Shown here one piece after another: positions 1 to 52,566 of a DNA stretch of 64,000 nucleotides. Origin of the DNA: an uncultured Planctomycetia bacterium (GTDB taxonomy: Bacteria > Omnitrophota > Gorgyraeia > B26-G9); the NCBI GenBank assembly GCA_964437495.1, contig CAYTGV010000005.1, forward strand, positions 759-64,758. The letters are read 5' to 3'. Position numbers and translations under genes: made by a program. Under the pieces are notes generated by a model that was given only the letters and a program-made list of their open reading frames with translations, had not been told where the DNA came from and made no database searches. Numbering within the stretch: position 1 is the first letter of the stretch; the number at the start of each line of letters is the position of its first letter.

Positions 1-3000
1 CGTCCGTGCTTTTAATCACATAGTTTGTTGCAACCAATTCTTCTTTATTAAAATCAAAATTTAGTGTTGCTGTAGCATTAAATTTTTCACCTGATGCCGA
101 TTGCCATCCCTCTAAAGATGAGGTTGGAGCCATTACACCTATTAATGCGATATCATTGAAAGATGAAAAATTTGAATCATTATACGTTAACAATCTGGTT
201 ATATTTGTAGATTGAAGTGTCATATCTACAGAACCAGACACTGATGCCTGGGTAACTGATACTAAACTCTTAGACTGCCAAACAAAAGCATTGTCTTCTC
301 CTGTAGTTCCTGTTAAAGCTACATCTTTATGTAAATAGCTAGCACTACTGCTGTAAAACTCAACATTACCCCTTGTACTTGAGCCTGTATGGTTATTAAT
401 AAATTCAGTAGGATTGTTGATAGTTTGGAGGTTGCTAATCAGGTCGTCACTTGTATAGATCGGATTCGAAAGCTGTATATCAGTAAGCATCTGATCTATT
501 GTCGAGCGGTCAACTGTAATATTTCCGCCGGCAGCCATAAAGGTAATCGTATCATTTGCTTCATAACCTTGCTTAAAATTCTGCTGACTTACCATCGTTG
601 ATATTTTAGCACGCGTATTGGTAATACCTGAAGTCACATTTGACACAGCCTGGGTATTCATAAAGCTGAGCTGGCGTGTACTGATTGTTTGTCCCCAAGC
701 CTGTCCAAAACTCAGGTTATTTGACTCTCCTGCTGTATCGCTGCCAGCTTGCTCGCCAAAAACCTCAGGATTTTTTTCTTTCTGCTCAGACCAGTACTCT
801 GCTTTTGCAGCATTTAGTGTCCAATAAGTATTGATACTGCCATCTTCATTATAATATTTTCCGTCCGCTCCTTGTTCTATACCGCTGTCCATGCCAAACA
901 TCATATATGACATTGTATCCATTTCACTGTTCCAGCTATCCATTGACAGCATTTTGTCATAAGCTGTAGCCTGACTATCTCCAGCATCGAATCCAACACT
1001 GCTAAATCCCTGATTGACCGCTGAAGAGATTTGCTGGCCAAGAGCATTCTGGAAAGCCTGCGTCTGCTCCTTTGAACTCATATTAGACATATCTACACTA
1101 TTATTTGTTGATGAGATATTAATAACTGATGATAAGTTATATGTTGCCTCAGAAGCCTGAGCATCAGTGTAATCAAGATTACGAATAAGAAATTCTTTAT
1201 ATCCACCGGTTAAAGATGAGGAAGCTCCTTCCCAAAAAGCATCTGACATCATATTAGTCCATGTAAAATTAACATCGTTAAAAGCCGTATCTGTTAAAGA
1301 TGAAGTCATACTGCCTATTGCCGAAGAAAAACCTGAAGTAAGAACAGGATCCCATCCATGTTCCTTACCAATGCGGTCTACAACCTTGCTGCCTATTGAC
1401 CCAACAAGTCCAGGAAGTGATTTGTACATATTCCCTTTAAAGGTCTGATCACTATGCAGGGCAGCCCCGCCTCCGGACTGTACAATCGTTCCTACTGTCA
1501 GCGCTATTCCTTCCATAACCAAAGGATCCCAGCCATGTTTATATCCTGCCTGCCTTACGGTTTCCATAGATAGGTTTGTTAATCCTCCGATAACCATATC
1601 CTTGAATATATAGCTTGAAGTAGTAGTAGTAGTAGTCGGTCCATAATTAAAAGCAGTACTTCCGGCCCAAGCACCTCCAAATCCAATAACAAAAGACCGA
1701 ACATAAGGATTAGTAACTCCAGCTGCATCTAATCCATAGACAAGCCCATATGATACAGCAGTTTGTTTGACAACATTTATAGCCACATTTTGTATAGCAA
1801 ATGGTGTCGCTGAACTTGATAACATAGCTAAACCGGTCGCGCCCACTGCTGTCCCCAATCCTCCGGTAAAAGATGTCCCAACAGTTCCCAAAGCCACGCC
1901 TTCAACACTAGTAGAGGCTACCGTTGAAGGTAAAGCTGCCCCTGCACCTGTTGCCATTGCCGATCCAGGTGATGCTGCAGAAAAAACTGCATTTCCTGCG
2001 ACATCTGTGCCCAGATATCCCATATTACTTTGAATACTCTCTGCCGGTCCCATAAAGGAAAAGGCAAAAGCAGCCACTCCATTCATTACAGCTTCAAGTA
2101 ACATTCTTTTGAAAATAATCTTAAATGCCTCTACATCATTATTCTTACAGGCCATTACCATATCATAGTCAAATAAATACCCTATAATTGTGCCGACAAA
2201 AGCACCTATTGCCATTCCAAGATTTGTATTACCTCCTAAGATTGTGCCAATAATACCGCCAATAATTGTGCAGACAGCAATGATAATAGTTTTAATTACT
2301 TGCCCAACTATCCTAGCAATATTTTCAGGCAGCATATGGTATAAAGTTACTACAGGCGCTATCATCATTTGGAAACTACCCATAGTCCTCTGCCAAAAAC
2401 CATCTTTTATCCGGTCCCAGTCTAGGGTTAAAATCCCTATCATCATCTGGATAGTACCTTGGATCCAGTTCTTCATACCGTTGTAAAAAGTTTTATAACC
2501 TTCGTAAACAGCTTTAACAAATTTCTTTACGTGATTATAAACAGCCTTAAATACACCGCCAAAAACACTGCGTCCGCCGCGGATCTGACGCATCTGCAGA
2601 TCAAGTAAACGATCTTTATCTATTGCTTTGTTATTTAAAGCCAGGACATAACCGTCCCAACGAATCTTAAGTTCTTCAATAGAGATAATCTCTGCTTTTC
2701 CATTATCAATAATTGAAACAGCATCTCCATCTATGTCTACAATAGTCACCCAGTGGTCATTATCTAAGTTAATAATTGCATTTTTATCAAGTTCCTTTAA
2801 GCTATCAAGGCTTAGCTTAAATCCTTCTAAGCTTATCCCGTACTTTTTGGCTACATTCTTTATTGCCATCATTGATGTCATTATATTTTTTTCTGTTATC
2901 TCTACTTCTCCTGTAGCGAGGATATCATCAACAATAAGCTCATAGGCCAGGTCTTCTTTAGAGGCCAGCTTGCGGCCTATATTTGCGGCAAAACTATCCA

Positions 3001-4171
3001 ATGCCTTTACCGCACAGTTGATAATGTTTACCGTATCATCCCAAACACCCTTTATTGCCTTTAAAATATAGGCCTTGCCAATATCAGCAAAGCTGTATCC
3101 GGCATCCACCATTGCCTTGGCAATAGCTGTCATATTACGGCTTAAGTCTGTTGCTATTTTTAATATGTCAACTGCGCTTATCCCGGCGGATTTAAATGCT
3201 GCCACAATATCTCTATCTGTAAAACCGGCATTTAACAGCGCCTCATAGATTTCTTTATCGCTATAGCTTACCTGTGCCTTATGGATTGACTGTACTATTT
3301 CCGTACAATTTAGATTTGCTTCTTTAAATATAGTTATGATATCTTTTAGATTAAATCCAATCTGGGCAAGAGCGTTTATGATACGCTCATTGGCAAGGCC
3401 GGCTTTCTTTAATATCCTAATTAGTTCTACACCGCGTTTGCCTTCATTTATCATTATGCGCACAAATTCAACACTCTGACGCAGCATTGCAGATTCTTTT
3501 GTGATTTTTTCGATCAACTTGGTAGGGTCTTTTTCGATCGGCATATCAGTTACTTTAGGAATTTCAAATATGCCTTCTTTGGCTTTAAGTACTTCTTCCT
3601 CTTTTTCTTCCTTTTTGTCCTTATCTAAAGGTGGTCCTGTTTTGCTTTCATCTACATCTGTCTTCTGCAGCTTCTTCTCTTCTTCAGCCTTAAGCAGTCC
3701 GCCTAAGAGTGTCTTAACATCATCCTTATCATAACCAGCTTTGATCAGCGCATGATATATCTCTTTCTTATTAAATCCCTGCCGCACAGCTCCAAATCCA
3801 GCTTCGGCAATTGAACATCCTGAACTTTTAAGAGTTGTAAATATAGCCGTCAGGTCATTACCGGCAATAGAAAGACCGCTGATCGTGGTATCGATTATCG
3901 GCATGGACTCTATCTGACCTTTAGTTATCACCTGCTCAAAGCCCATATAAGGCATTGCCGGATTAGTTAGCACAAGCTTATCACTCAGAGCATCAACAGA
4001 AAGCTTATCTCTGTTATCATTTGTCTGCTGGTTTTCCATCATCGCTTCTTTTGAGCCTTTATTCTCCCGGTAATTTGCTGCCCAGGAAATATCAGACATT
4101 GTAAATAGAAACGCCTCCAGCACAATAAAAGCAATTACCTTAAACCAAAGTTTTCCTGTTTGATCGTACAT
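1..4171 (-). CDS. giant multi-domain surface/membrane protein, N-terminus at 4171 and C-terminus beyond the window edge (at least 1390 aa); contains a C39-like cysteine peptidase domain
   Basis: Manual minus-strand translation from ATG at 4171..4169 (AGGAGG at 4177-4182, 5-nt spacer) runs without a stop to position 1. I confirmed the frame at three points (4171, 2752, 58); all have their first base at position = 1 mod 3. Protein order: N-terminal hydrophobic anchor (MYDQTGKLWFKVIAFIVLEAFLF); repeated ~18-35 aa helical modules (xEIYxALxxAGxxxxDIxxxFK); a C39-like core with INCAVKAL (Cys ~386) ... NDHWVTIVDIDGD (His ~472) ... ISIEELKIRWDGYVLAL; a polytopic Gly/Ile-rich hydrophobic block; duplicated HGWDP(L/V) modules; a Ser/Thr/Asn-rich tail with an (ACT)6 Thr run. 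It is absent from the ORF track because no stop lies in the window. Confidence 0.75.
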   Translation of the reverse strand, partial: MYDQTGKLWFKVIAFIVLEAFLFTMSDISWAANYRENKGSKEAMMENQQTNDNRDKLSVDALSDKLVLTNPAMPYMGFEQVITKGQIESMPIIDTTISGLSIAGNDLTAIFTTLKSSGCSIAEAGFGAVRQGFNKKEIYHALIKAGYDKDDVKTLLGGLLKAEEEKKLQKTDVDESKTGPPLDKDKKEEKEEEVLKAKEGIFEIPKVTDMPIEKDPTKLIEKITKESAMLRQSVEFVRIMINEGKRGVELIRILKKAGLANERIINALAQIGFNLKDIITIFKEANLNCTEIVQSIHKAQVSYSDKEIYEALLNAGFTDRDIVAAFKSAGISAVDILKIATDLSRNMTAIAKAMVDAGYSFADIGKAYILKAIKGVWDDTVNIINCAVKALDSFAANIGRKLASKEDLAYELIVDDILATGEVEITEKNIMTSMMAIKNVAKKYGISLEGFKLSLDSLKELDKNAIINLDNDHWVTIVDIDGDAVSIIDNGKAEIISIEELKIRWDGYVLALNNKAIDKDRLLDLQMRQIRGGRSVFGGVFKAVYNHVKKFVKAVYEGYKTFYNGMKNWIQGTIQMMIGILTLDWDRIKDGFWQRTMGSFQMMIAPVVTLYHMLPENIARIVGQVIKTIIIAVCTIIGGIIGTILGGNTNLGMAIGAFVGTIIGYLFDYDMVMACKNNDVEAFKIIFKRMLLEAVMNGVAAFAFSFMGPAESIQSNMGYLGTDVAGNAVFSAASPGSAMATGAGAALPSTVASTSVEGVALGTVGTSFTGGLGTAVGATGLAMLSSSATPFAIQNVAINVVKQTAVSYGLVYGLDAAGVTNPYVRSFVIGFGGAWAGSTAFNYGPTTTTTTSSYIFKDMVIGGLTNLSMETVRQAGYKHGWDPLVMEGIALTVGTIVQSGGGAALHSDQTFKGNMYKSLPGLVGSIGSKVVDRIGKEHGWDPVLTSGFSSAIGSMTSSLTDTAFNDVNFTWTNMMSDAFWEGASSSLTGGYKEFLIRNLDYTDAQASEATYNLSSVINISSTNNSVDMSNMSSKEQTQAFQNALGQQISSAVNQGFSSVGFDAGDSQATAYDKMLSMDSWNSEMDTMSYMMFGMDSGIEQGADGKYYNEDGSINTYWTLNAAKAEYWSEQKEKNPEVFGEQAGSDTAGESNNLSFGQAWGQTISTRQLSFMNTQAVSNVTSGITNTRAKISTMVSQQNFKQGYEANDTITFMAAGGNITVDRSTIDQMLTDIQLSNPIYTSDDLISNLQTINNPTEFINNHTGSSTRGNVEFYSSSASYLHKDVALTGTTGEDNAFVWQSKSLVSVTQASVSGSVDMTLQSTNITRLLTYNDSNFSSFNDIALIGVMAPTSSLEGWQSASGEKFNATATLNFDFNKEELVATNYVIKSTD
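1619..1636 (-). repeat. (AGT)6 trinucleotide repeat, encoding a Thr run inside the giant ORF
   Basis: agtagtagtagtagtagt is read directly at 1619-1636; in frame it encodes TTTTTT in the low-complexity tail. Confidence 0.6.
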
Positions 4172-4227
4172 AAGATGCCTCCTGTTTCACGGTTTTTTTA
4201 ACAATAAAAAAACCGAGCTGTTAAAAC

Positions 4228-4725
4228 TTAAACAATTCGGTTTATTATAAAATCTCTCAACTTTGCAGTTTTAGTTGGCGGTCCGGTTGAAACTTCATTT
4301 CTGCTTCTCGCCATAATCTCTTTAGTACTTGCCTTATCTTTATTTAAGCTATATGCCAGCTTAACATTATTTATATTAAAAAATGAGCAACTTAATGCTT
4401 TATAAATCTCGTTATTAAATACGCGCAATTCTTTTACAGATACGATTTTTGATATGGAATAATCGCTGCCTTCAAGCAAGCTAAACATGGCATCCAGATT
4501 AAGATGTGGTAAGTGCAATCCAACAAGGCTAAGCTGAAAACTGCCAATGCCGTCAATCAGACTTACAGACTTTGTAGCTATTCTATTAAATCTAAGAACA
4601 GCTTCCTTAAAGGTGTCCTTACTCTGGTACATAGCTGCCAGAGCAAAGTCAGCCTGAGTCAGCAACAAAGCCTGAATAATAATTACGACTATTATTTTAA
4701 GCCACAATTTCTTGCCCATAACCAT
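4228..4725 (-). CDS. hypothetical secreted protein (signal peptide), immediately upstream of and co-directional with the giant gene
   Basis: ORF 4228..4785; the likely true start is the internal Met (MVMGKKLWLKIIVVIIIQALLLTQADFALA), a classic signal peptide. There are 56 nt to the giant gene start. I recognise no domain. Confidence 0.45.
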   Translation of the reverse strand: MVMGKKLWLKIIVVIIIQALLLTQADFALAAMYQSKDTFKEAVLRFNRIATKSVSLIDGIGSFQLSLVGLHLPHLNLDAMFSLLEGSDYSISKIVSVKELRVFNNEIYKALSCSFFNINNVKLAYSLNKDKASTKEIMARSRNEVSTGPPTKTAKLRDFIINRIV

Positions 4726-5090
4726 TCTTTCTTTATTCCACCCCGGGGGTGGAATTTTGGTTGATCTAATAAAAAAAGATAGCAAAACTGCGTTCCTCGT
4801 CCTTTAATTCTACTCAGGACGAATCCTGAGCCTGTCAAATGGATTCGGCAGCTCGGCTATCTTGGCTTGCTTATCGCGTTATCGATACGCTCGGCGATCT
4901 TTGCATTAGCTTTAGACCCGTAGCTTTGCGCCCTCAAGTTTTCCTGAGTTTGCCATTTCGGTTTTTATACTTATTAAAATAATTTAAAATCTCTTTAGTT
5001 ACTGTAATTAAGTATACCATGCCTTTTTACGCTTGTCAATAGCCGGGCCTGGCCAGGAATAAGGTCATATTTTAATGATAGGTTAAGATA

Positions 5091-5363
5091 TTATACAGAG
5101 GGTTTTCCTTCGAGTAAAGTATCAATCTTTTCCACTTTATTGAAAATTGCAATAACCAGCTTAATCAGCTCAGAAGCGCTAAATAGCACTAGAAAATATA
5201 TGCCTCCACCAATTAAAAATACTAAACTTGCAGCTCTGGGTGTATCGCCTCCAGCACCAAAGAGTACAATAAGCGAAACAATAATAAAAAAAACCGCAGA
5301 TATCCATGCCAAAACCTTGAATATCAACGCACATAGGCTTAGAATTTTAACTCCTTTATTCAT
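5091..5363 (-). CDS. small membrane protein (two predicted TM helices)
   Basis: ORF 5091..5369 as GTG-extended; AAGGAGG sits 9 nt before ATG at 5363 (MNKGVKILSLCALIFKVLAWISAVFFIIVSLIVLF...). Two hydrophobic helices; no recognisable family. Confidence 0.45.
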   Translation of the reverse strand: MNKGVKILSLCALIFKVLAWISAVFFIIVSLIVLFGAGGDTPRAASLVFLIGGGIYFLVLFSASELIKLVIAIFNKVEKIDTLLEGKPSV

Positions 5364-16317: not shown

Positions 16318-18756
16318 TCAAGTGGAAAAAGTAAGCTCTTCCTTTTTTAGGTCTGCAGATATTTTAATCTGCTTTGTCTTTTCGATATGCCCAGACAATA
16401 TTTCTTCAGCCAAAGGATTTTCTAAAAATCTTTGGATAGTTCTCTTCAGGGGCCTTGCACCGAAATTCTGGTCAAATCCTTTAGTGATCAGCAGATCTTT
16501 TGCTTTTTGGTCAAGCTCAATATCTACTTGCTGGTCACTTAAACGTGCTACAAGGTCATGTATTTCAATCTCTATTATCTTATAGAGATCCTCTTTGGTC
16601 AAAGGCCTAAATACTATCGCATCATCAACACGATTAAGAAATTCAGGTTTAAAAGCTTTCTTAACCTCTTCCATTAATTTAGCTTTCATTGATTTATAAT
16701 TCATCTCGTCTTCCTGAGATGTGAAACCAATCGCTCCCTGCTTACGCAGTAAATCTGCTCCGATATTACTGGTCATGATCAACACAGTATTTCGAAAGTC
16801 AATTTTTCTACCCAGACTGTCTGTTAAACGCCCTTCTTCTAAAACCTGCAGCAACAGATTAAATACATCCGGATGTGCTTTTTCAACCTCATCCAGCAGG
16901 ATTACCGAATAAGGTTTTCTTCTGACTTTTTCTGTCAATTGCCCCCCCTCTTCATATCCAACATATCCGGGAGGTGCTCCGACTAAACGTGAGACATTGA
17001 ATTTTTCCATATATTCTGACATATCAATTTGAATTATCGAATCAAGATCTCCGAACATAAAATTTGCCAGTGCCTTACCAAGAAGCGTCTTACCAACCCC
17101 TGTAGGCCCGAGGAATATAAATGACCCAATAGGCCGTTTCGGGTCTTTCAATCCTGCGCGTGAGCGGCGTACAGCATGCGTAATAGCCTTTATCGCCTCG
17201 TCCTGTCCAATAATTGTTTTATGCAATTCATCTTCCATCTTTAAAAGCTTTTCGCTTTCTTTCTCCTCCAAACGAGCTATAGGAACTCCGGTCCATTGGG
17301 AAATTATTTCAGCGATATCCTCTTCCTGGACCTCAACACTTGTCTCCATATTGCTTTCTTTCCAGCTACGCCTTATTTTTTCAAGCTCACTGCGGGATTC
17401 TCGCTCTTTATCACGATAAGAAGCCGCCTTTTCAAAATCCTGAGCCTTTACAGATGCCTCTTTTTCTTTTCTTAATTCCTCAATTTTATTTTCCATGTCT
17501 TTTAGATCCGGAGGCGCTGTCATAGCTTCAAGTCTTGCTTTAGCACCAGCTTCATCAATAATATCAACTGCCTTATCAGGCAGAAATCTACCGCTTATAT
17601 AACGCTCGGATAATTTAGCCGCTGCATTCAATGCCGCATCTGAATACTTAACCCTATGATGCGCTTCATATTTATCTCTTAGGCCTTTTAAGATCTCAAA
17701 CGTTTCAGATATAGACGGCGGATCAACAATTATAGTCTGAAATCTTCTTTCAAGCGCCGCGTCTTTTTCAATATATTTTCGGTATTCATCAATTGTCGTT
17801 GCTCCAATACACTGAATCTCTCCGCGAGCCAATGCAGGTTTTAAAATGTTAGATGCATCTATCGCTCCCTCTGCTCCGCCTGCTCCGACTAGTGTATGCA
17901 GCTCATCAATAAATATCATTACATTCTCAGATCGTTTTATTTCATCCATAACCGCCTTAATGCGTTCTTCAAACTGGCCTCTGTATTTTGTACCTGCTAC
18001 CATTAAAGCCAGATCAAGCACAACCACTCTTTTATCACGCAATATCTCAGGAACATTTCCGGCAACAATTTTTTGCGCTAGTCCCTCTACAATAGCTGTT
18101 TTTCCTACACCTGCCTCACCAAGCAAAACAGGATTGTTTTTAGTTCTGCGGCTGAGAATACGGATAACCCGCTCTATTTCCATAGCCCTGCCAATCACAG
18201 GATCAAGTTTTCCGTTTTTAGCTAATTTATTAAGATCTCTGCCAAAAGCATCTAAGGCTGGAGTTTTAGCCTTTGAGGCAACTGCACCCGGTTGTTGTGT
18301 AGCATCGTAATTTGCGGAGGTTGTTCCCAATAATTCCATTATCTCTTTACGTACCTTATTAAGATCAAGTCCGAGGTTTAACAATACTTGTGAAGCTACT
18401 CCTTCATTTTCACGAATAAGCCCGAGCAGAAGATGCTCTGTCCCTATATAGTTATGGCCCAGATTTCTGGCCTCATCCATAGCCAGCTCAATCACCTTTT
18501 TTGCTTTAGGCGTAAACGGTATATCTCCGCTGGTTACCGTACTTGGCCCAGGCTGAACCAGTTTTTCTGTCTCCAGCCTTATCATATCCAGATTAAGTCC
18601 CAGGTTCTGCAATACCGCAGAAGCAACCCCCTCGCCTTCTTTAATAAGTCCAAGCAGTATATGTTCAGTACCTATATAGTCGTGATTGAATCGTTTGGAT
18701 TCTTCTTTTGCCAATAAGATTACTTTTCTCGCTCTCTCTGTAAATCTGTCAAACAT
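16318..18756 (-). CDS. clpC: ATP-dependent Clp protease ATP-binding subunit ClpC
   Basis: Two Clp_N repeats, a UVR motif, two AAA+ modules (GEAGVGKTAIVEGLA, GPTGVGKTLLGKALA) and a ClpB_D2-small C-terminus. Start MFDRFTERARKVI at 18756 with AAGGGGGAG upstream; the track start at 18861 is an extension. Confidence 0.9.
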   Translation of the reverse strand: MFDRFTERARKVILLAKEESKRFNHDYIGTEHILLGLIKEGEGVASAVLQNLGLNLDMIRLETEKLVQPGPSTVTSGDIPFTPKAKKVIELAMDEARNLGHNYIGTEHLLLGLIRENEGVASQVLLNLGLDLNKVRKEIMELLGTTSANYDATQQPGAVASKAKTPALDAFGRDLNKLAKNGKLDPVIGRAMEIERVIRILSRRTKNNPVLLGEAGVGKTAIVEGLAQKIVAGNVPEILRDKRVVVLDLALMVAGTKYRGQFEERIKAVMDEIKRSENVMIFIDELHTLVGAGGAEGAIDASNILKPALARGEIQCIGATTIDEYRKYIEKDAALERRFQTIIVDPPSISETFEILKGLRDKYEAHHRVKYSDAALNAAAKLSERYISGRFLPDKAVDIIDEAGAKARLEAMTAPPDLKDMENKIEELRKEKEASVKAQDFEKAASYRDKERESRSELEKIRRSWKESNMETSVEVQEEDIAEIISQWTGVPIARLEEKESEKLLKMEDELHKTIIGQDEAIKAITHAVRRSRAGLKDPKRPIGSFIFLGPTGVGKTLLGKALANFMFGDLDSIIQIDMSEYMEKFNVSRLVGAPPGYVGYEEGGQLTEKVRRKPYSVILLDEVEKAHPDVFNLLLQVLEEGRLTDSLGRKIDFRNTVLIMTSNIGADLLRKQGAIGFTSQEDEMNYKSMKAKLMEEVKKAFKPEFLNRVDDAIVFRPLTKEDLYKIIEIEIHDLVARLSDQQVDIELDQKAKDLLITKGFDQNFGARPLKRTIQRFLENPLAEEILSGHIEKTKQIKISADLKKEELTFST

Positions 18757-18930
18757 GTAACTCCCCCTTTTTAATGATCCCGCCTTGACAGGCGAATTAA
18801 ACCCGCCCCATCTTTTATCTTTGTCTTTGCCCAATATAAGATTGGTGCACAGGTAATCCACTATATAAAAAATATTATTATCTGATACAATCTAATAGCT
18901 TAGCATTATTAAAATTTACTAAACCGTGAT

Positions 18931-19980
18931 TTATTTTATTTTTTCCCGAATCAACTGCGCACGTTTAACATCACGCTGATGAGCTGTAAGCGCTTTAGCT
19001 TCCAGTTTTTGTAAATGTGCTGGCTGTGTTAAAATGAAAAGCTCATTGATTGTTTCCCGAGCTAATCCTTTGATAAGACCCATATCAAATCCTAATCTTA
19101 CATTAGAAAGAAGCTTAATAGTTTCCACACTCGATATAATATGAGCATTTTTTAATATCCCATAAGCACGCCAAACCTGGTCTTCCAAATTGCTCTTATC
19201 TTTAGTCTTTAATACCTGCCGCGCATTTTGTTCATATTCAAAAACCTGATTTAATATCCGTGTTATATTATCAATAATTTCATGCTCACTTCTTCCAAGA
19301 GATACCTGATTAGATATCTGAAAAAAGTTTCCTGTTGCCTCAGTACCCTCTCCGAATAATCCTCTTACCGTAAGTCCCAGCTTAACAATTGCCTGCACAA
19401 CACGGTTTATCTGCTTAGTCATTACAAGCGCCGGAAGGTGAAGCATTGCAGAAGCACGCATTCCTGTGCCTGTATTTGTCGGGCAAGCAGTCAGATATCC
19501 CAGTTTTACTGAAAAAGCGATATTAAGTTTCTTTTCCAATCTATTGTCAATATTTTCTATTTTATTCCAGCATTCCTCAAGCGCAAATCCAGGAAGCAAT
19601 ACCTGAATGCGCATATGATCTTCTTCATTGATCATTATCGAAACAGATTCATCAGAATTTATCGCAACAGCACGGCCTTCTTTTTTAGCAATCAACTCTC
19701 TGCTTATTAAATGTCTTTCCACCATTAGCTGTTTTTCAACATTTGTCGCGTCTTTTATCGCTAAGAACAGACCTTTGTTTTTTATCTCATCAACTTCCCT
19801 AACAACAGGCTCAATTATAGCAAGAGTACTCTCCAGCTGCGGATCAGTCGCCCAATCAGGAAAGATCATCTTTTCGATATTTCGCGCCAGGCGTACGCGG
19901 CTAGAAATAACAATATCAGAATGCGGCCCAGTCCCTTTGAGCCAGCCACTAGTTTGTTTAAGAAGATCGTCAAGTGTCAT
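18931..19980 (-). CDS. mcsB: protein arginine kinase McsB
   Basis: Phosphagen-kinase fold motifs (CPTNTGTGMRASAMLHLPAL). Confidence 0.9.
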   Translation of the reverse strand: MTLDDLLKQTSGWLKGTGPHSDIVISSRVRLARNIEKMIFPDWATDPQLESTLAIIEPVVREVDEIKNKGLFLAIKDATNVEKQLMVERHLISRELIAKKEGRAVAINSDESVSIMINEEDHMRIQVLLPGFALEECWNKIENIDNRLEKKLNIAFSVKLGYLTACPTNTGTGMRASAMLHLPALVMTKQINRVVQAIVKLGLTVRGLFGEGTEATGNFFQISNQVSLGRSEHEIIDNITRILNQVFEYEQNARQVLKTKDKSNLEDQVWRAYGILKNAHIISSVETIKLLSNVRLGFDMGLIKGLARETINELFILTQPAHLQKLEAKALTAHQRDVKRAQLIREKIK

Positions 19981-49932: not shown

Positions 49933-50010
49933 TGGCGGAGCCGACGGGGTTCGAACCCGCGACCTTCGGATCGACAGTCCGACGTTCTAAACCAGCTGAA
50001 CTACGGCTCC
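49933..50010 (-). tRNA. tRNA-Asp (GTC)
   Basis: GGAGCCGTAGTTCAGCTGGTTAGAACGTCGGACTGTCGATCCGAAGGTCGCGGGTTCGAACCCCGTCGGCTCCGCCA; anticodon loop CTGTCGA. Confidence 0.9.
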
Positions 50011-50150: not shown

Positions 50151-50227
50151 TGGTGGGCGCGGTAGGACTCGAACCTACGACCCCCTCCTTGTAAGGGAGG
50201 TGCTCTAACCAACTGTGCTACGCGCCC
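50151..50227 (-). tRNA. tRNA-Val (TAC)
   Basis: GGGCGCGTAGCACAGTTGGTTAGAGCACCTCCCTTACAAGGAGGGGGTCGTAGGTTCGAGTCCTACCGCGCCCACCA; anticodon loop CTTACAA. Confidence 0.9.
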
Positions 50228-50280: not shown

Positions 50281-52566
50281 TTAAATTGATCTTTGCACTA
50301 TCTCCAGTTGTTGTTTAAATAATAATCTTTTCGGCTTAAAAATGATTCCATTTTGCCTAAGAAAATTTTCAGTCCTACTCAAAAATTCAATTGCAAAATC
50401 CCAGTTTCGCCGTTCTAATGTATTTTTTTCAGCCTTCGGATCCATATTTGCAATTAAGCTTGTTGGGATCACTACAACAAATTTATCTCCCTCGTTTGCA
50501 AAAGTTATTTGCTGTGATTTTATCTTAGTTTTATTTCCATCATCAACAATCCTGATTTCAAAATCCTCATAAAAATAAGTTTCTAGCAAAAACGGCATTA
50601 GATATTTTCCTAATATACTGTTGCCCTCATTCTGCTTTTTAAAAGCCAACCAATTTGGTATATGAATTTCTTTATCCATTGAATTGAGTTCAACAATTAC
50701 TTTATTCTCACTTACATCCTTTGCAATTTTTTGTTTAGCATTAACATTTGGATTTATATCCCGCTCAATCTGATTAATAATTTTCATTATCGGTTTAAAG
50801 CAACTTTTATTATCTTTATTCACAAGATAGGGCTGATCTGCATCCTGCTTATATCCATTAAGCCATCCAAGGGACACAATTACAACCGGTTTACCTTTTA
50901 TATACACTTTGTAAGGTAGCGTTTTCTGAAAATTATCACAAAATCTTATTTCAATGTCTGAAAATTTTACTCTTTTATTTTTATTCATAAAATATAAAGC
51001 AAAATCCTCAATCCGATTATTTATCCCTGCTTCTCTGTCTTCATACTTATGCCTAAACTTTAGAATATTCTCCTTAATTATTTCTTTTGTTCCTAGCCTA
51101 ATCCGAGCAAAGGTCTGATCAATCAAATGCTTAAATTCTATTTTTGCTGCATAAAAATTATAAGGAATGACCAAGATTCGAGAACCTTTAAACTCCATAA
51201 AATACGGTTTTTTCCTCTGGGAATCAACCACGATCCGAATTTGGAGATCTTTATATGTTTGATCTTTCATATTGAGAGAGCATTGCTCAAAAAATTTAGA
51301 CAAAGACTTTACTTTTTCTTTTTTTAACTCAAGCTTAGGATATAAGTGATCCAATGTTTTGTTAATTATCTTATTCTGCTGATTCCAAGTATTAACCCAT
51401 CCCAGAGTATTCTCCTGGATAAACTCCTCATCAGGAACAACTAAATTATCCTCACTCTGCCCTTCTCTTGTGCATGCTATTAACTCTGTTACTGATTGGT
51501 CCATATTCCTAAAAATAGCTATTATACTGTGACTAACTGCATCATTTCTGGCTTGTAAAATTTGATCTGTGCCTAATATTTCTGAATTAGGAATTAAAGA
51601 TTCAGGAACCAATAATGTATATCGGCCATTAAATTTCATAAGTATCACATTTCGCCCAAACCTATGCGGCTTTTTCACAAACCGAATATCAAAATCCTCG
51701 GCAAATTTAATATTCTCTAAATTCGGCAGTAAAAAATCCTCAATAAAAAGCTTAATATCAATATTGGACCAGTATCGCAGTAAATCAGGAATAACCAGAT
51801 TTCTTTTTAAAGAATCAAAACTAACAATTGTACTATCTACAATTGACTGCATCACAGGAGAGAGCTGCTTATCAAAATCACCAGCATCATCATCACTCTC
51901 TTTAATTGTCTGATAAATAACATCTAGAATTATTTTACTAGCTGTTTGATAAGCCTCCTTAATCTTCTCATTTGAGGCCCTACCGCCATTTTTATCCGGC
52001 AGCCAAAGCAACGGCACAATCACACAATACTTATTATCAATAAAAGCAGGATAGGGATAAACAATCGTTAAATCCGGATCATGAATAATCCTTAAATCAA
52101 TATCAGAGAAATCTTTATTTTTAATTTGATTCATAAAAAAATCTAAAAAATTATTCACTCGCGACGTAATTGTTTCCTTAAAAAATTTTTGCCTTTTAAG
52201 TCCATTATTAGACTGCCATGCATTTTCAATAATTACCTGCTTAGAAGAAAGCTCTACCCGAGCAATTGTATTTTCCATTATTTTGCTTTGTTTAGATTCT
52301 ACCCAATTTTTTATTTTCTCTGTGAGAATATCAGTCTCAGAAGGAATTTTTATTGGTATTTTCAAACCATCAATATCAAGCATGCCTGTCTGATTACTAA
52401 TCGTTAATGCTTTTTGATTAACATCCTGAAAAGCCCGGTTATTGATTTGCAATGCGGGAGAAAGCATATCCGCGGCAAATACACAAGTTACCGAGAAAAA
52501 TGTATTAATGATTAATACCGCTATGATTTCAGTTATTGATTTATTCATATTAAAAAAATCCTTCAC
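50281..52566 (-). CDS. secreted hypothetical protein built from five divergent tandem copies of an uncharacterised ~120-150 aa module
   Basis: Signal peptide (IIAVLIINTFFSVTCVFAA). Repeated core F-x-D-[IL]-x-[IL]-R-[IF]-x(12-22)-[VIL][VIL][VIL]-P: FSDIDLRIIHD...YCVIVPLLW; FAEDFDIRFVKK...YTLLVPESL; YKDLQIRIVVDS...RILVIPYNF; FSDIEIRFCDN...PVVIVSLGW; YEDFEIRIVDD...FVVVIPTSL. Confidence 0.6.
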   Translation of the reverse strand: MKDFFNMNKSITEIIAVLIINTFFSVTCVFAADMLSPALQINNRAFQDVNQKALTISNQTGMLDIDGLKIPIKIPSETDILTEKIKNWVESKQSKIMENTIARVELSSKQVIIENAWQSNNGLKRQKFFKETITSRVNNFLDFFMNQIKNKDFSDIDLRIIHDPDLTIVYPYPAFIDNKYCVIVPLLWLPDKNGGRASNEKIKEAYQTASKIILDVIYQTIKESDDDAGDFDKQLSPVMQSIVDSTIVSFDSLKRNLVIPDLLRYWSNIDIKLFIEDFLLPNLENIKFAEDFDIRFVKKPHRFGRNVILMKFNGRYTLLVPESLIPNSEILGTDQILQARNDAVSHSIIAIFRNMDQSVTELIACTREGQSEDNLVVPDEEFIQENTLGWVNTWNQQNKIINKTLDHLYPKLELKKEKVKSLSKFFEQCSLNMKDQTYKDLQIRIVVDSQRKKPYFMEFKGSRILVIPYNFYAAKIEFKHLIDQTFARIRLGTKEIIKENILKFRHKYEDREAGINNRIEDFALYFMNKNKRVKFSDIEIRFCDNFQKTLPYKVYIKGKPVVIVSLGWLNGYKQDADQPYLVNKDNKSCFKPIMKIINQIERDINPNVNAKQKIAKDVSENKVIVELNSMDKEIHIPNWLAFKKQNEGNSILGKYLMPFLLETYFYEDFEIRIVDDGNKTKIKSQQITFANEGDKFVVVIPTSLIANMDPKAEKNTLERRNWDFAIEFLSRTENFLRQNGIIFKPKRLLFKQQLEIVQRSI

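Follow-up and report, generated by a model that had tools for sequence, protein, structure and literature searches.

A C39 peptidase domain followed by a candidate cis double-glycine site in a very large Omnitrophota protein, encoded downstream of a c-di-GMP-I class riboswitch

The giant genes of Candidatus Omnitrophota count among the largest known genes. West-Roberts et al. (2023, bioRxiv 10.1101/2023.11.21.568195) described a C39 peptidase domain near the N-terminus of their products, together with a signal peptide, and suggested autocatalytic cleavage, while explicitly leaving open whether these products exist as one chain or as cut pieces. In a 2026 preprint (bioRxiv 10.64898/2026.06.07.730766), a group of 24 proteins with the C39 family PF03412 forms the largest architecture cluster among long Omnitrophota proteins. 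The gene considered here lies at the left edge of a stretch of 64,000 nucleotides (hereafter the window) from an uncultured Planctomycetia bacterium, placed by GTDB in the Omnitrophota (assembly GCA_964437495.1, contig CAYTGV010000005.1, positions 759 to 64,758), and its product belongs to this known class, i.e. very large Omnitrophota proteins with an N-terminal C39 domain. The overall explanation that is favoured here, with a probability of roughly 0.6, is that of a giant protein that would be cut in cis by its own C39 domain and whose operon would be gated by cyclic di-GMP (c-di-GMP).

A preliminary description of the locus, made from the letters of the window, had called a C39 domain embedded in a giant cell-envelope protein 'not a described arrangement', a claim that does not hold, since West-Roberts et al. 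(2023) and the 2026 preprint already report it. What appears to be new is the conserved double-glycine site in cis, the c-di-GMP-I riboswitch with a terminator-based ON platform, and the paralogy between the giant protein and a small open reading frame (ORF) upstream of it. The words 'glycine', 'cleavage site' and 'riboswitch' occur zero times in these two reports, and the literature searched contained no paper that mentions a riboswitch or a glycine cleavage motif in connection with the giant genes of Omnitrophota. The double-glycine site at the boundary of a conserved N-terminal cassette and the riboswitch control are incremental findings.

The likeness to the published giant and long C39 proteins comprises the same phylum, a signal-like N-terminus, the C39 domain itself, transmembrane (TM) segments, a huge region nearly devoid of domains, a proposed autoproteolysis and a gene for a PilZ (c-di-GMP-related) protein beside the giant genes of the relatives. 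In the relatives of the window family, however, the PilZ gene is found upstream and not downstream of the giant gene. The sizes differ as well: 'giant' in the literature stands for more than 30,000 amino acids (aa; West-Roberts et al.) or at least 10,000 aa (the preprint), whereas complete relatives measure 6.3-7.8 thousand aa (6321 aa for P0008, complete on a 79.8-kb contig, 7815 aa for P0010 and 7803 aa for P0013). Two further relatives are still open at more than 4682 aa (L012) and more than 4636 aa (L007), none is shown at 10,000 aa, and the copy in the window counts 1390 aa, being truncated by the edge. All homologues stem from metagenome-assembled genomes (MAGs) of Candidatus Omnitrophota or of the Planctomycetes-Verrucomicrobia-Chlamydiae (PVC) group, and most of those in the databases are 'partial', as their contigs break within the giant gene. 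The homologous loci have an upstream gene order in common (PIN-TRAM, IspD, IspF, hexapeptide transferase, CysS, ROK). C39 is the sole Pfam domain above threshold in the giant protein and its long relatives, in which ABC_membrane and ABC_tran domains gave no match, and the region downstream of C39 yielded no above-threshold Pfam match in the window protein or its relatives.

The C39 domain and the candidate cleavage site

The features on which the argument turns are as follows.

1..4171, minus strand: 5' part of the giant-protein gene, 1390 codons, open at the window edge (translation)
2633..3043, minus strand: residues 377-513, C39 cysteine peptidase domain (Pfam, PDB profile, AlphaFold2, Foldseek, conservation)
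3014-3016, 2753-2755 and 2705-2707, minus strand: catalytic codons of Cys386, His473 and Asp489, respectively
2573..2617, minus strand: residues 519-533, motif DRLLDLQMRQIRGG, resembling a double-glycine leader; predicted cleavage at G533-R534 (conservation, model)

Translation bears out the uninterrupted minus-strand frame that had been described: the 1390 codons between the ATG at 4171 and the edge of the window contain no stop, and the ORF list omits the frame only because it exits the window. The assignment of a C39-like peptidase stands as well. PF03412 matches the giant protein with 43.6 bits (gathering score 22, E = 3e-11), over profile positions 45-131 of 133, i.e. over the His/Asp half, as it does in the relatives. 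In a profile search, the best PDB sequence relative of the C39 region is LahT150 (6MPZ, 'Double Glycine Motif Protease'), with which both the His and the Asp boxes align, while a phmmer search of the whole giant protein against the PDB gave no useful match. An AlphaFold2 model from a diverse alignment of 44 sequences reached a predicted local distance difference test (pLDDT) score of 90.1 and a predicted template modelling score of 0.87 (an earlier run with 8 close homologues only, at a pLDDT of 49.9, was discarded), and it recovered the papain-like fold of the ComA, LahT and PCAT1 peptidase domains. The top 24 Foldseek matches are LahT150 with its leader, PCAT1, ComA PEP and C39-like domains, at a probability of 1.0 and a target-normalised template modelling score of about 0.75, the best being 6MPZ, 4RY2, 8VP5, 5XE8 and 3K8U (E 3e-6 to 6e-5). 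NCBIfam matches to an NHLM ABC exporter and to FapD were set aside, as they are far under their cutoffs and merely echo the C39 domain.

INCAVKAL starts at residue 384 and DNDHWV at residue 470, so that Cys386 and His473 lie 87 residues apart; the Cys had thus been placed correctly ahead of the His box in the preliminary description, at a spacing (86 residues) that was one too short. The sequence EELKIRWDGYVLAL is present after the His box. C386, H473 and D489 are invariant across the 8 close homologues, and in 115 domain matches from distant relatives, which were gathered by an exhaustive search of representative proteins, the Cys is kept in 81 of the 83 that are aligned there, the His in 112 of 115, and D or E in the Asp column in 105 of 115 (86 D, 19 E). 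The 16 residues from His473 to Asp489 equal the distance from His101 to Asp117 in LahT. Because Cys386 is present and conserved, the domain is assigned to the active type of C39, unlike the inactive HlyB-type, and it is a genuine and apparently catalytically competent peptidase, as far as alignment and model allow it to be judged. A further residue, Asp416 (in a DDIL motif, 2924-2926, minus strand), is, like Cys386 and His473, invariant in 44 of the 44 diverse sequences; the position of Asp489 varies between D and E.

About 20 residues past the last strand of the C39 domain, the chain carries the double-glycine-type motif LLDLQMRQIRGG, after whose G533 the cut is predicted. The leaders of double-glycine substrates end on GG, GA or GS and have hydrophobic residues at -4, -7 and -12 that occupy the peptidase groove (Bobeica et al. 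2019), and the leader-like positions in the motif are L-12, M-7, I-4, G-2 and G-1. All 8 close homologues share M527, R528, I530, R531, G532, G533 and R534, and the motif is present at all homologous loci, with GA for GG in L012. Even among relatives of 25-40% identity, about 38 of which have an aligned tail, position -2 is G in 36 of 38 and position -1 is A in 20, G in 8 and S in 4, with I, L or V at -4 and M or L at -7. The motif is also unique: the long relatives have it a single time in more than 4,600 residues. The modelled tail is helical between -10 and -5 and then extended (-3 and -2), a shape that matches the leader in the LahT complex, with a pLDDT of 93 that drops to about 50 directly past the GG.

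For at least 9 lineages (P0013, with 7803 aa, P0015, with 4961 aa, P0014, P0018, P0019, P0020, P0023, P0024 and P0027), BLASTP homology with the window protein does not go past residues 530-540, and for P0006, P0012 and P0008 it stops at 560-585, while a closer subfamily is colinear up to about residue 1190. As the endpoints cluster at the motif, a conserved N-terminal cassette ends there and is followed by differing C-terminal regions. Since a conserved double-glycine-type motif follows the C39 domain in cis, the 'self-processing' option of the preliminary description has become the best-supported reading, although the cut after Gly533 and its exact site are both predictions from sequence and model.

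Variation on this arrangement is found among the relatives. Seven of them (P0023, P0024, P0027, P0031, P0032, P0035 and P0036) have 2-3 C39 domains, with the GG/GA tail mostly after the first only, and H-A-V replaces H-W/F-V in the later copies. A distinct C39 subfamily (for example P0044, P0050, P0054, P0058 and P0071) has NCG for NCA and, in the place of I.GG, a conserved tail AFVWG[NSD].W, which may be a different self-recognition motif.

The riboswitch and the operon

Upstream of the giant gene, the following features were found.

5091..5363, minus strand: 90-aa hydrophobic ORF with two TM segments (2-TM)
5011..5039, minus strand: sigma-70-type promoter-like site, TTGACA, 17 nt, TG-TATACT, with 11/12 matches (consensus match only)
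4843..4963, minus strand: aptamer of the c-di-GMP-I riboswitch class (clan CL00126), in the 5' untranslated region (UTR) of the operon (Rfam)
4771..4862, minus strand: expression platform, a long hairpin and then a U7 run, i.e. an intrinsic terminator, of which the 5' arm GAUAGCCGAGCUGC is the aptamer 3' strand (minimum free energy (MFE) fold)
4228..4725, minus strand: small protein of 165 aa with a signal-like N-terminus, the first gene after the riboswitch (conserved in operons)
4178..4183, minus strand: ribosome-binding site AGGAGG, 6-nt spacer, ATG at 4171 (sequence inspection)

The window aptamer scores 62.2 bits with RF03167 (gathering score 59, E = 5.6e-14), while the orthologous aptamers of five other loci (L001, L004, L007, L011 and L012), which precede the same small gene, match RF01051 with 39-77 bits (gathering score 35). 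An invariant core is common to all 6 aptamers, and GCAAAGC is identical to that of the orthologues matching RF01051; the variant G of the RF03167 model aligns to an A in the window aptamer. The element would be expected to respond to c-di-GMP.

The terminator hairpin has an MFE z-score of -3.9. In the window, L001 and L007, a ...CGGCUAU segment farther downstream, with a U-run behind it, offers the aptamer 3' strand (GAUAGCCGAGCU...) an alternative pairing partner, so that aptamer and terminator are mutually exclusive in three loci, the loop sequences of which differ. Because the aptamer 3' strand doubles as the 5' arm of the terminator, the element probably works as a transcriptional ON switch. 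The region has 5 promoter-like sites, where chance would give 3.5, the one at 5011..5039 being the best and correctly placed. At the locus of the complete 6321-aa relative (L014), a transposase fragment (4477-4884) sits where the riboswitch would be, and no aptamer was found there at the Rfam threshold.

In the relatives, the operon runs from the aptamer through genes for a protein of ~160 aa, a PilZ protein, a protein of ~230 aa and one of 440-650 aa to the giant gene, while that of the window is minimal, consisting of the aptamer, the small protein and the giant gene. The small protein aligns with the product of the first gene in five homologous operons (35-62% identity). It is moreover a paralogue of residues 1-181 of the giant protein itself (3629-4171, minus strand; BLASTP against residues 1-200, E = 2e-12), with which it has KLW.K..hydrophobic..AA, IYKAL and TGPP motifs in common. 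Two short database proteins, P0029 (198 aa) and P0107 (227 aa), match only these ~181 N-terminal residues of the giant protein. The conserved SLI.G[AI][GAS] stretch of the small protein was considered as a double-glycine site and rejected, as it does not form one consistently.

The secreted small protein and the 2-TM protein that had been described immediately upstream both exist as ORFs, but the latter lies upstream of the promoter and riboswitch and is probably not part of the unit: since these two elements separate it from the small ORF, the 2-TM ORF is probably a transcription unit of its own. The start signal of the giant gene (AGGAGG and the ATG at 4171) had likewise been seen correctly, except for the spacer, which measures 6 nt instead of 5. 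This ribosome-binding site and the stop of the small ORF (4228) flank an A/T-rich hairpin, CGGTTTTTTT-ATTGTT-AAAAAAACCG (4191-4216, minus strand), which could serve attenuation or transcript stabilisation at the junction of the two genes.

Other parts of the giant protein and of the window

Five further regions of the 1390 residues were delimited.

4079..4171, minus strand: residues 1-31, Sec-type signal peptide or signal anchor (K7 and K11, hydrophobic residues 8-26, SWA followed by A; hydropathy scan and conservation)
3044..3475, minus strand: residues 233-376, about ten 14-residue helical repeats, [DE]I..A[LF]..AG.... (self-similarity)
2027..2464, minus strand: residues ~570-715, Gly/Ile-rich hydrophobic, glycine-zipper-like membrane block (hydropathy, Pfam sub-threshold)
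1292..1594, minus strand: residues ~860-960, two HGWDP modules (879 and 938), kept in the close subfamily (conservation)
2..1174, minus strand: residues 1000-1390, S/T/N-rich region, with the gene running on beyond the window (composition)

The layout agrees with the architecture given in the preliminary description. The N-terminal membrane anchor is recognisable as hydrophobic residues 8-26 followed by SWA and AN, in the manner of a signal peptide, and the Gly/Ile-rich membrane block, the duplicated HGWDP and the Ser/Thr/Asn tail are all present. The short helical repeats exist too, in a number higher than the eight or so counted before: about ten consecutive copies in residues 233-376 and 3-4 more in residues 106-165, with a self-similarity at offset 14 of 0.59 (at most 0.02 in 500 shuffles). 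UBA-like Pfam matches on these repeats and Gly-zipper matches on the hydrophobic block, which was also delimited as about residues 600-715, remained below threshold. The S/T/N content amounts to 31-34% across residues 1001-1390, of which the part up to about residue 1190 can be aligned to relatives, the sequence being variable beyond. A search of metagenome contigs for an exact match to the left end of the window gave none; the closest contig in the genome collection is L006 (84%), and none is identical.

A shorter paralogue (P0007, 1490 aa, complete; loci L002 and L013), from the same MAG as P0003, has the same cassette and double-glycine site with another C-terminus. Its locus, which adjoins smpB and the transfer-messenger RNA gene, is without the riboswitch and without the small-ORF operon. 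By eye, this C-terminus had been read as alpha/beta-hydrolase-like (from a GxSxG-like HSFGQ), a reading that was dropped upon finding no Pfam match at 1e-4.

Elsewhere in the window, an ORF of 761 aa (50281-52566, minus strand) without a Pfam match at 1e-6 adjoins two tRNA genes (49936-50010 and 50154-50227), and a ClpC-type AAA+ chaperone gene adjoins one for an ATP:guanido phosphotransferase, i.e. a McsB-like arginine kinase (16318-19980, minus strand). The pairing of ClpC and McsB is best known from protein quality control in Firmicutes.

Proposed self-processing, its alternatives and the known systems

In the explanation favoured here, residues 1 to about 533 form a conserved cassette consisting of a Sec-type signal or anchor, a domain of ~150 residues (which the upstream gene also encodes on its own), about ten helical repeats and an active-type C39 domain, and the end of the cassette mimics a double-glycine leader. 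The C39 domain would bind this tail as PCAT, ComA and LahT bind bacteriocin leaders and cut after Gly533, either within one molecule or between sister molecules, which would separate the N-terminal cassette from a membrane-embedded and lineage-variable remainder. At the level of transcription, the aptamer would compete with the intrinsic terminator, such that high c-di-GMP would switch on the small paralogue and the giant gene. The membrane topology, as well as a role in attachment or predation, is likewise inferred. The broader proposal, namely a portable, self-excising 'leader-protease cassette' placed on many unrelated very large cargo proteins and switched by c-di-GMP through a riboswitch, is given about an even chance.

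Several observations do not sit easily with self-processing under c-di-GMP control. The placement of the Cys is based on the family alignment and the fold, whereas the Pfam and PDB sequence alignments cover the His/Asp half only. The Gln six residues ahead of the Cys is absent (T380 here, with G, T, S, E or K in this column in the relatives); this Gln has been proposed as the oxyanion residue (Gln21 in LahT), a role that was questioned by Bobeica et al. (2019). The docking of Gly533 at Cys386 is read only from model confidence and secondary structure, and a signal peptide at the N-terminus would make the peptidase periplasmic, whereas the PCAT domains are cytoplasmic. Several relatives have second or third C39 copies that lack the GG tail, so trans substrates may exist. 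With regard to the regulation, relatives have a PilZ gene and others inserted after the small ORF and before the giant gene, all of which the window copy lacks; the best Rfam model of its aptamer is the 'GGC' variant RF03167, a label that is not relied on here, as the core is equal to that of the RF01051 matches.

It could be, then, that the C39 domain acts in trans, on substrates with double-glycine leaders or on proteins of prey cells, and that the GG-like motif downstream is left uncut. Such a role is canonical for C39 and was named as an alternative by West-Roberts et al. (2023); it would also fit the several relatives in which, out of 2-3 C39 copies, a GG/GA tail follows the first alone, and C39-like toxin domains occur in polymorphic toxins (PMC3482391) and among the fold matches (9L5U, 8SSM). 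Toxin domains, however, are C-terminal, whereas C39 is N-terminal here, and in relatives of 25-75% identity the conservation of the cis motif exceeds that of its flanks; the model shows it ordered against the domain with high confidence. Nor does the window offer a partner for a trans reaction: a regex scan for small ORFs with double-glycine leaders returned only TM segments and antisense ORFs, without a credible candidate, and the ABC genes found there belong to the Mla and MacB/Lol types, with no PCAT or type 1 secretion system exporter in the window. A trans role is therefore considered unlikely, and the surface protease acting on Gly-Gly-leader substrates, the other option of the preliminary description, finds no support in the window. 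Nor is there support for the adhesin or toxin proposed in that description, since Pfam gives no match above threshold beyond the C39 domain, in the window protein as in its relatives.

The ordered, leader-like tail of the model would fit stable binding just as well as cleavage, which leads to the thought that the tail is an uncleaved pseudo-substrate or latch, which would inhibit the enzyme itself or hold the nascent giant chain in the manner of a chaperone, comparable to HlyB, whose inactive C39-like domain binds substrate. C39-like domains that bind without cutting are known (3ZUA and 7SGR are among the fold matches; Lecher 2012, cited by West-Roberts et al.). The HlyB-type domain, however, has been described as a potential chaperone and not as a peptidase that processes. 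In the present family, Cys, His and Asp are conserved throughout, which argues for catalysis, the small residues (G, A, S) at -1 and -2 suit a scissile site, and the motif coincides with a recombination or homology boundary; a latch is thought to be quite improbable. That the whole ORF would be an artefact of assembly or annotation (a chimeric contig or a fused pseudogene) is hardly credible. It is true that the ORF is cut by the window edge, that most homologues are 'partial' at contig ends and that separate ORFs lie just upstream at L007 and L011, but the same colinear N-terminal 1190 residues recur in more than 10 independent MAGs, P0008 is complete with its 6321 aa inside the 79.8-kb contig, and ribosome-binding site, promoter and riboswitch are all correctly placed.

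If the cassette proposal is true, this would be the first C39 enzyme to act in cis without an ABC exporter, and the question of post-translational cutting of the Omnitrophota giant proteins would be answered with a defined site. The locus makes such cleavage testable, as it narrows it down to one predicted bond (Gly533-Arg534) and one nucleophile (Cys386) within an expressible fragment of ~250 residues. The riboswitch would link expression of the giant protein to c-di-GMP, which fits a deployment during attachment, and would provide a regulatory handle in organisms that are as yet genetically intractable.

Among the systems outside the Omnitrophota, polymorphic toxins (Zhang et al. 2012, PMC3482391) likewise combine a conserved N-terminal module with lineage-variable C-termini and a peptidase at the junction. 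In the window family, however, the variable part extends over thousands of residues, and neither a toxin domain nor an immunity gene was identified; the criteria of that class leave variable C-termini as the sole common trait, the C-termini of the relatives having no Pfam match, and in the polymorphic-toxin framework C39-like domains are classed as toxin domains and not as releasing peptidases (PMC3482391).

With the HlyB-type C39-like domain, the window domain has its fold in common (3ZUA, 7SGR and 8DCK are among the Foldseek matches), and HlyB is tied to the export of very large proteins. The HlyB-type domain is without the catalytic Cys, whereas the window family has kept it and has no ABC exporter.

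The closest match at the level of the domain is found in the AMS/PCAT peptidases (ComA, LahT and PCAT1; MEROPS C39), which have the same fold, Cys/His/Asp triad and His-Asp spacing, a motif obeying the same leader rules and the predicted shape of the bound leader. Unlike in these peptidases, the window C39 is not fused to ABC transmembrane and ATPase domains, and none are nearby; about 13 extra residues lie between Cys and His, besides the missing Gln; and the presumed substrate is part of the same chain, directly C-terminal, with a 'leader' that is a cassette of 533 residues compared to the usual 15-30. As for the regulation, the c-di-GMP-I (GEMM-I) riboswitches of surface and adhesion genes resemble the window element in their position in the 5' UTR, the overlap with a terminator and the large envelope protein encoded downstream, while the window aptamer differs from them by its occurrence in Omnitrophota, ahead of a giant-gene operon, and by a long insertion in its second hairpin.

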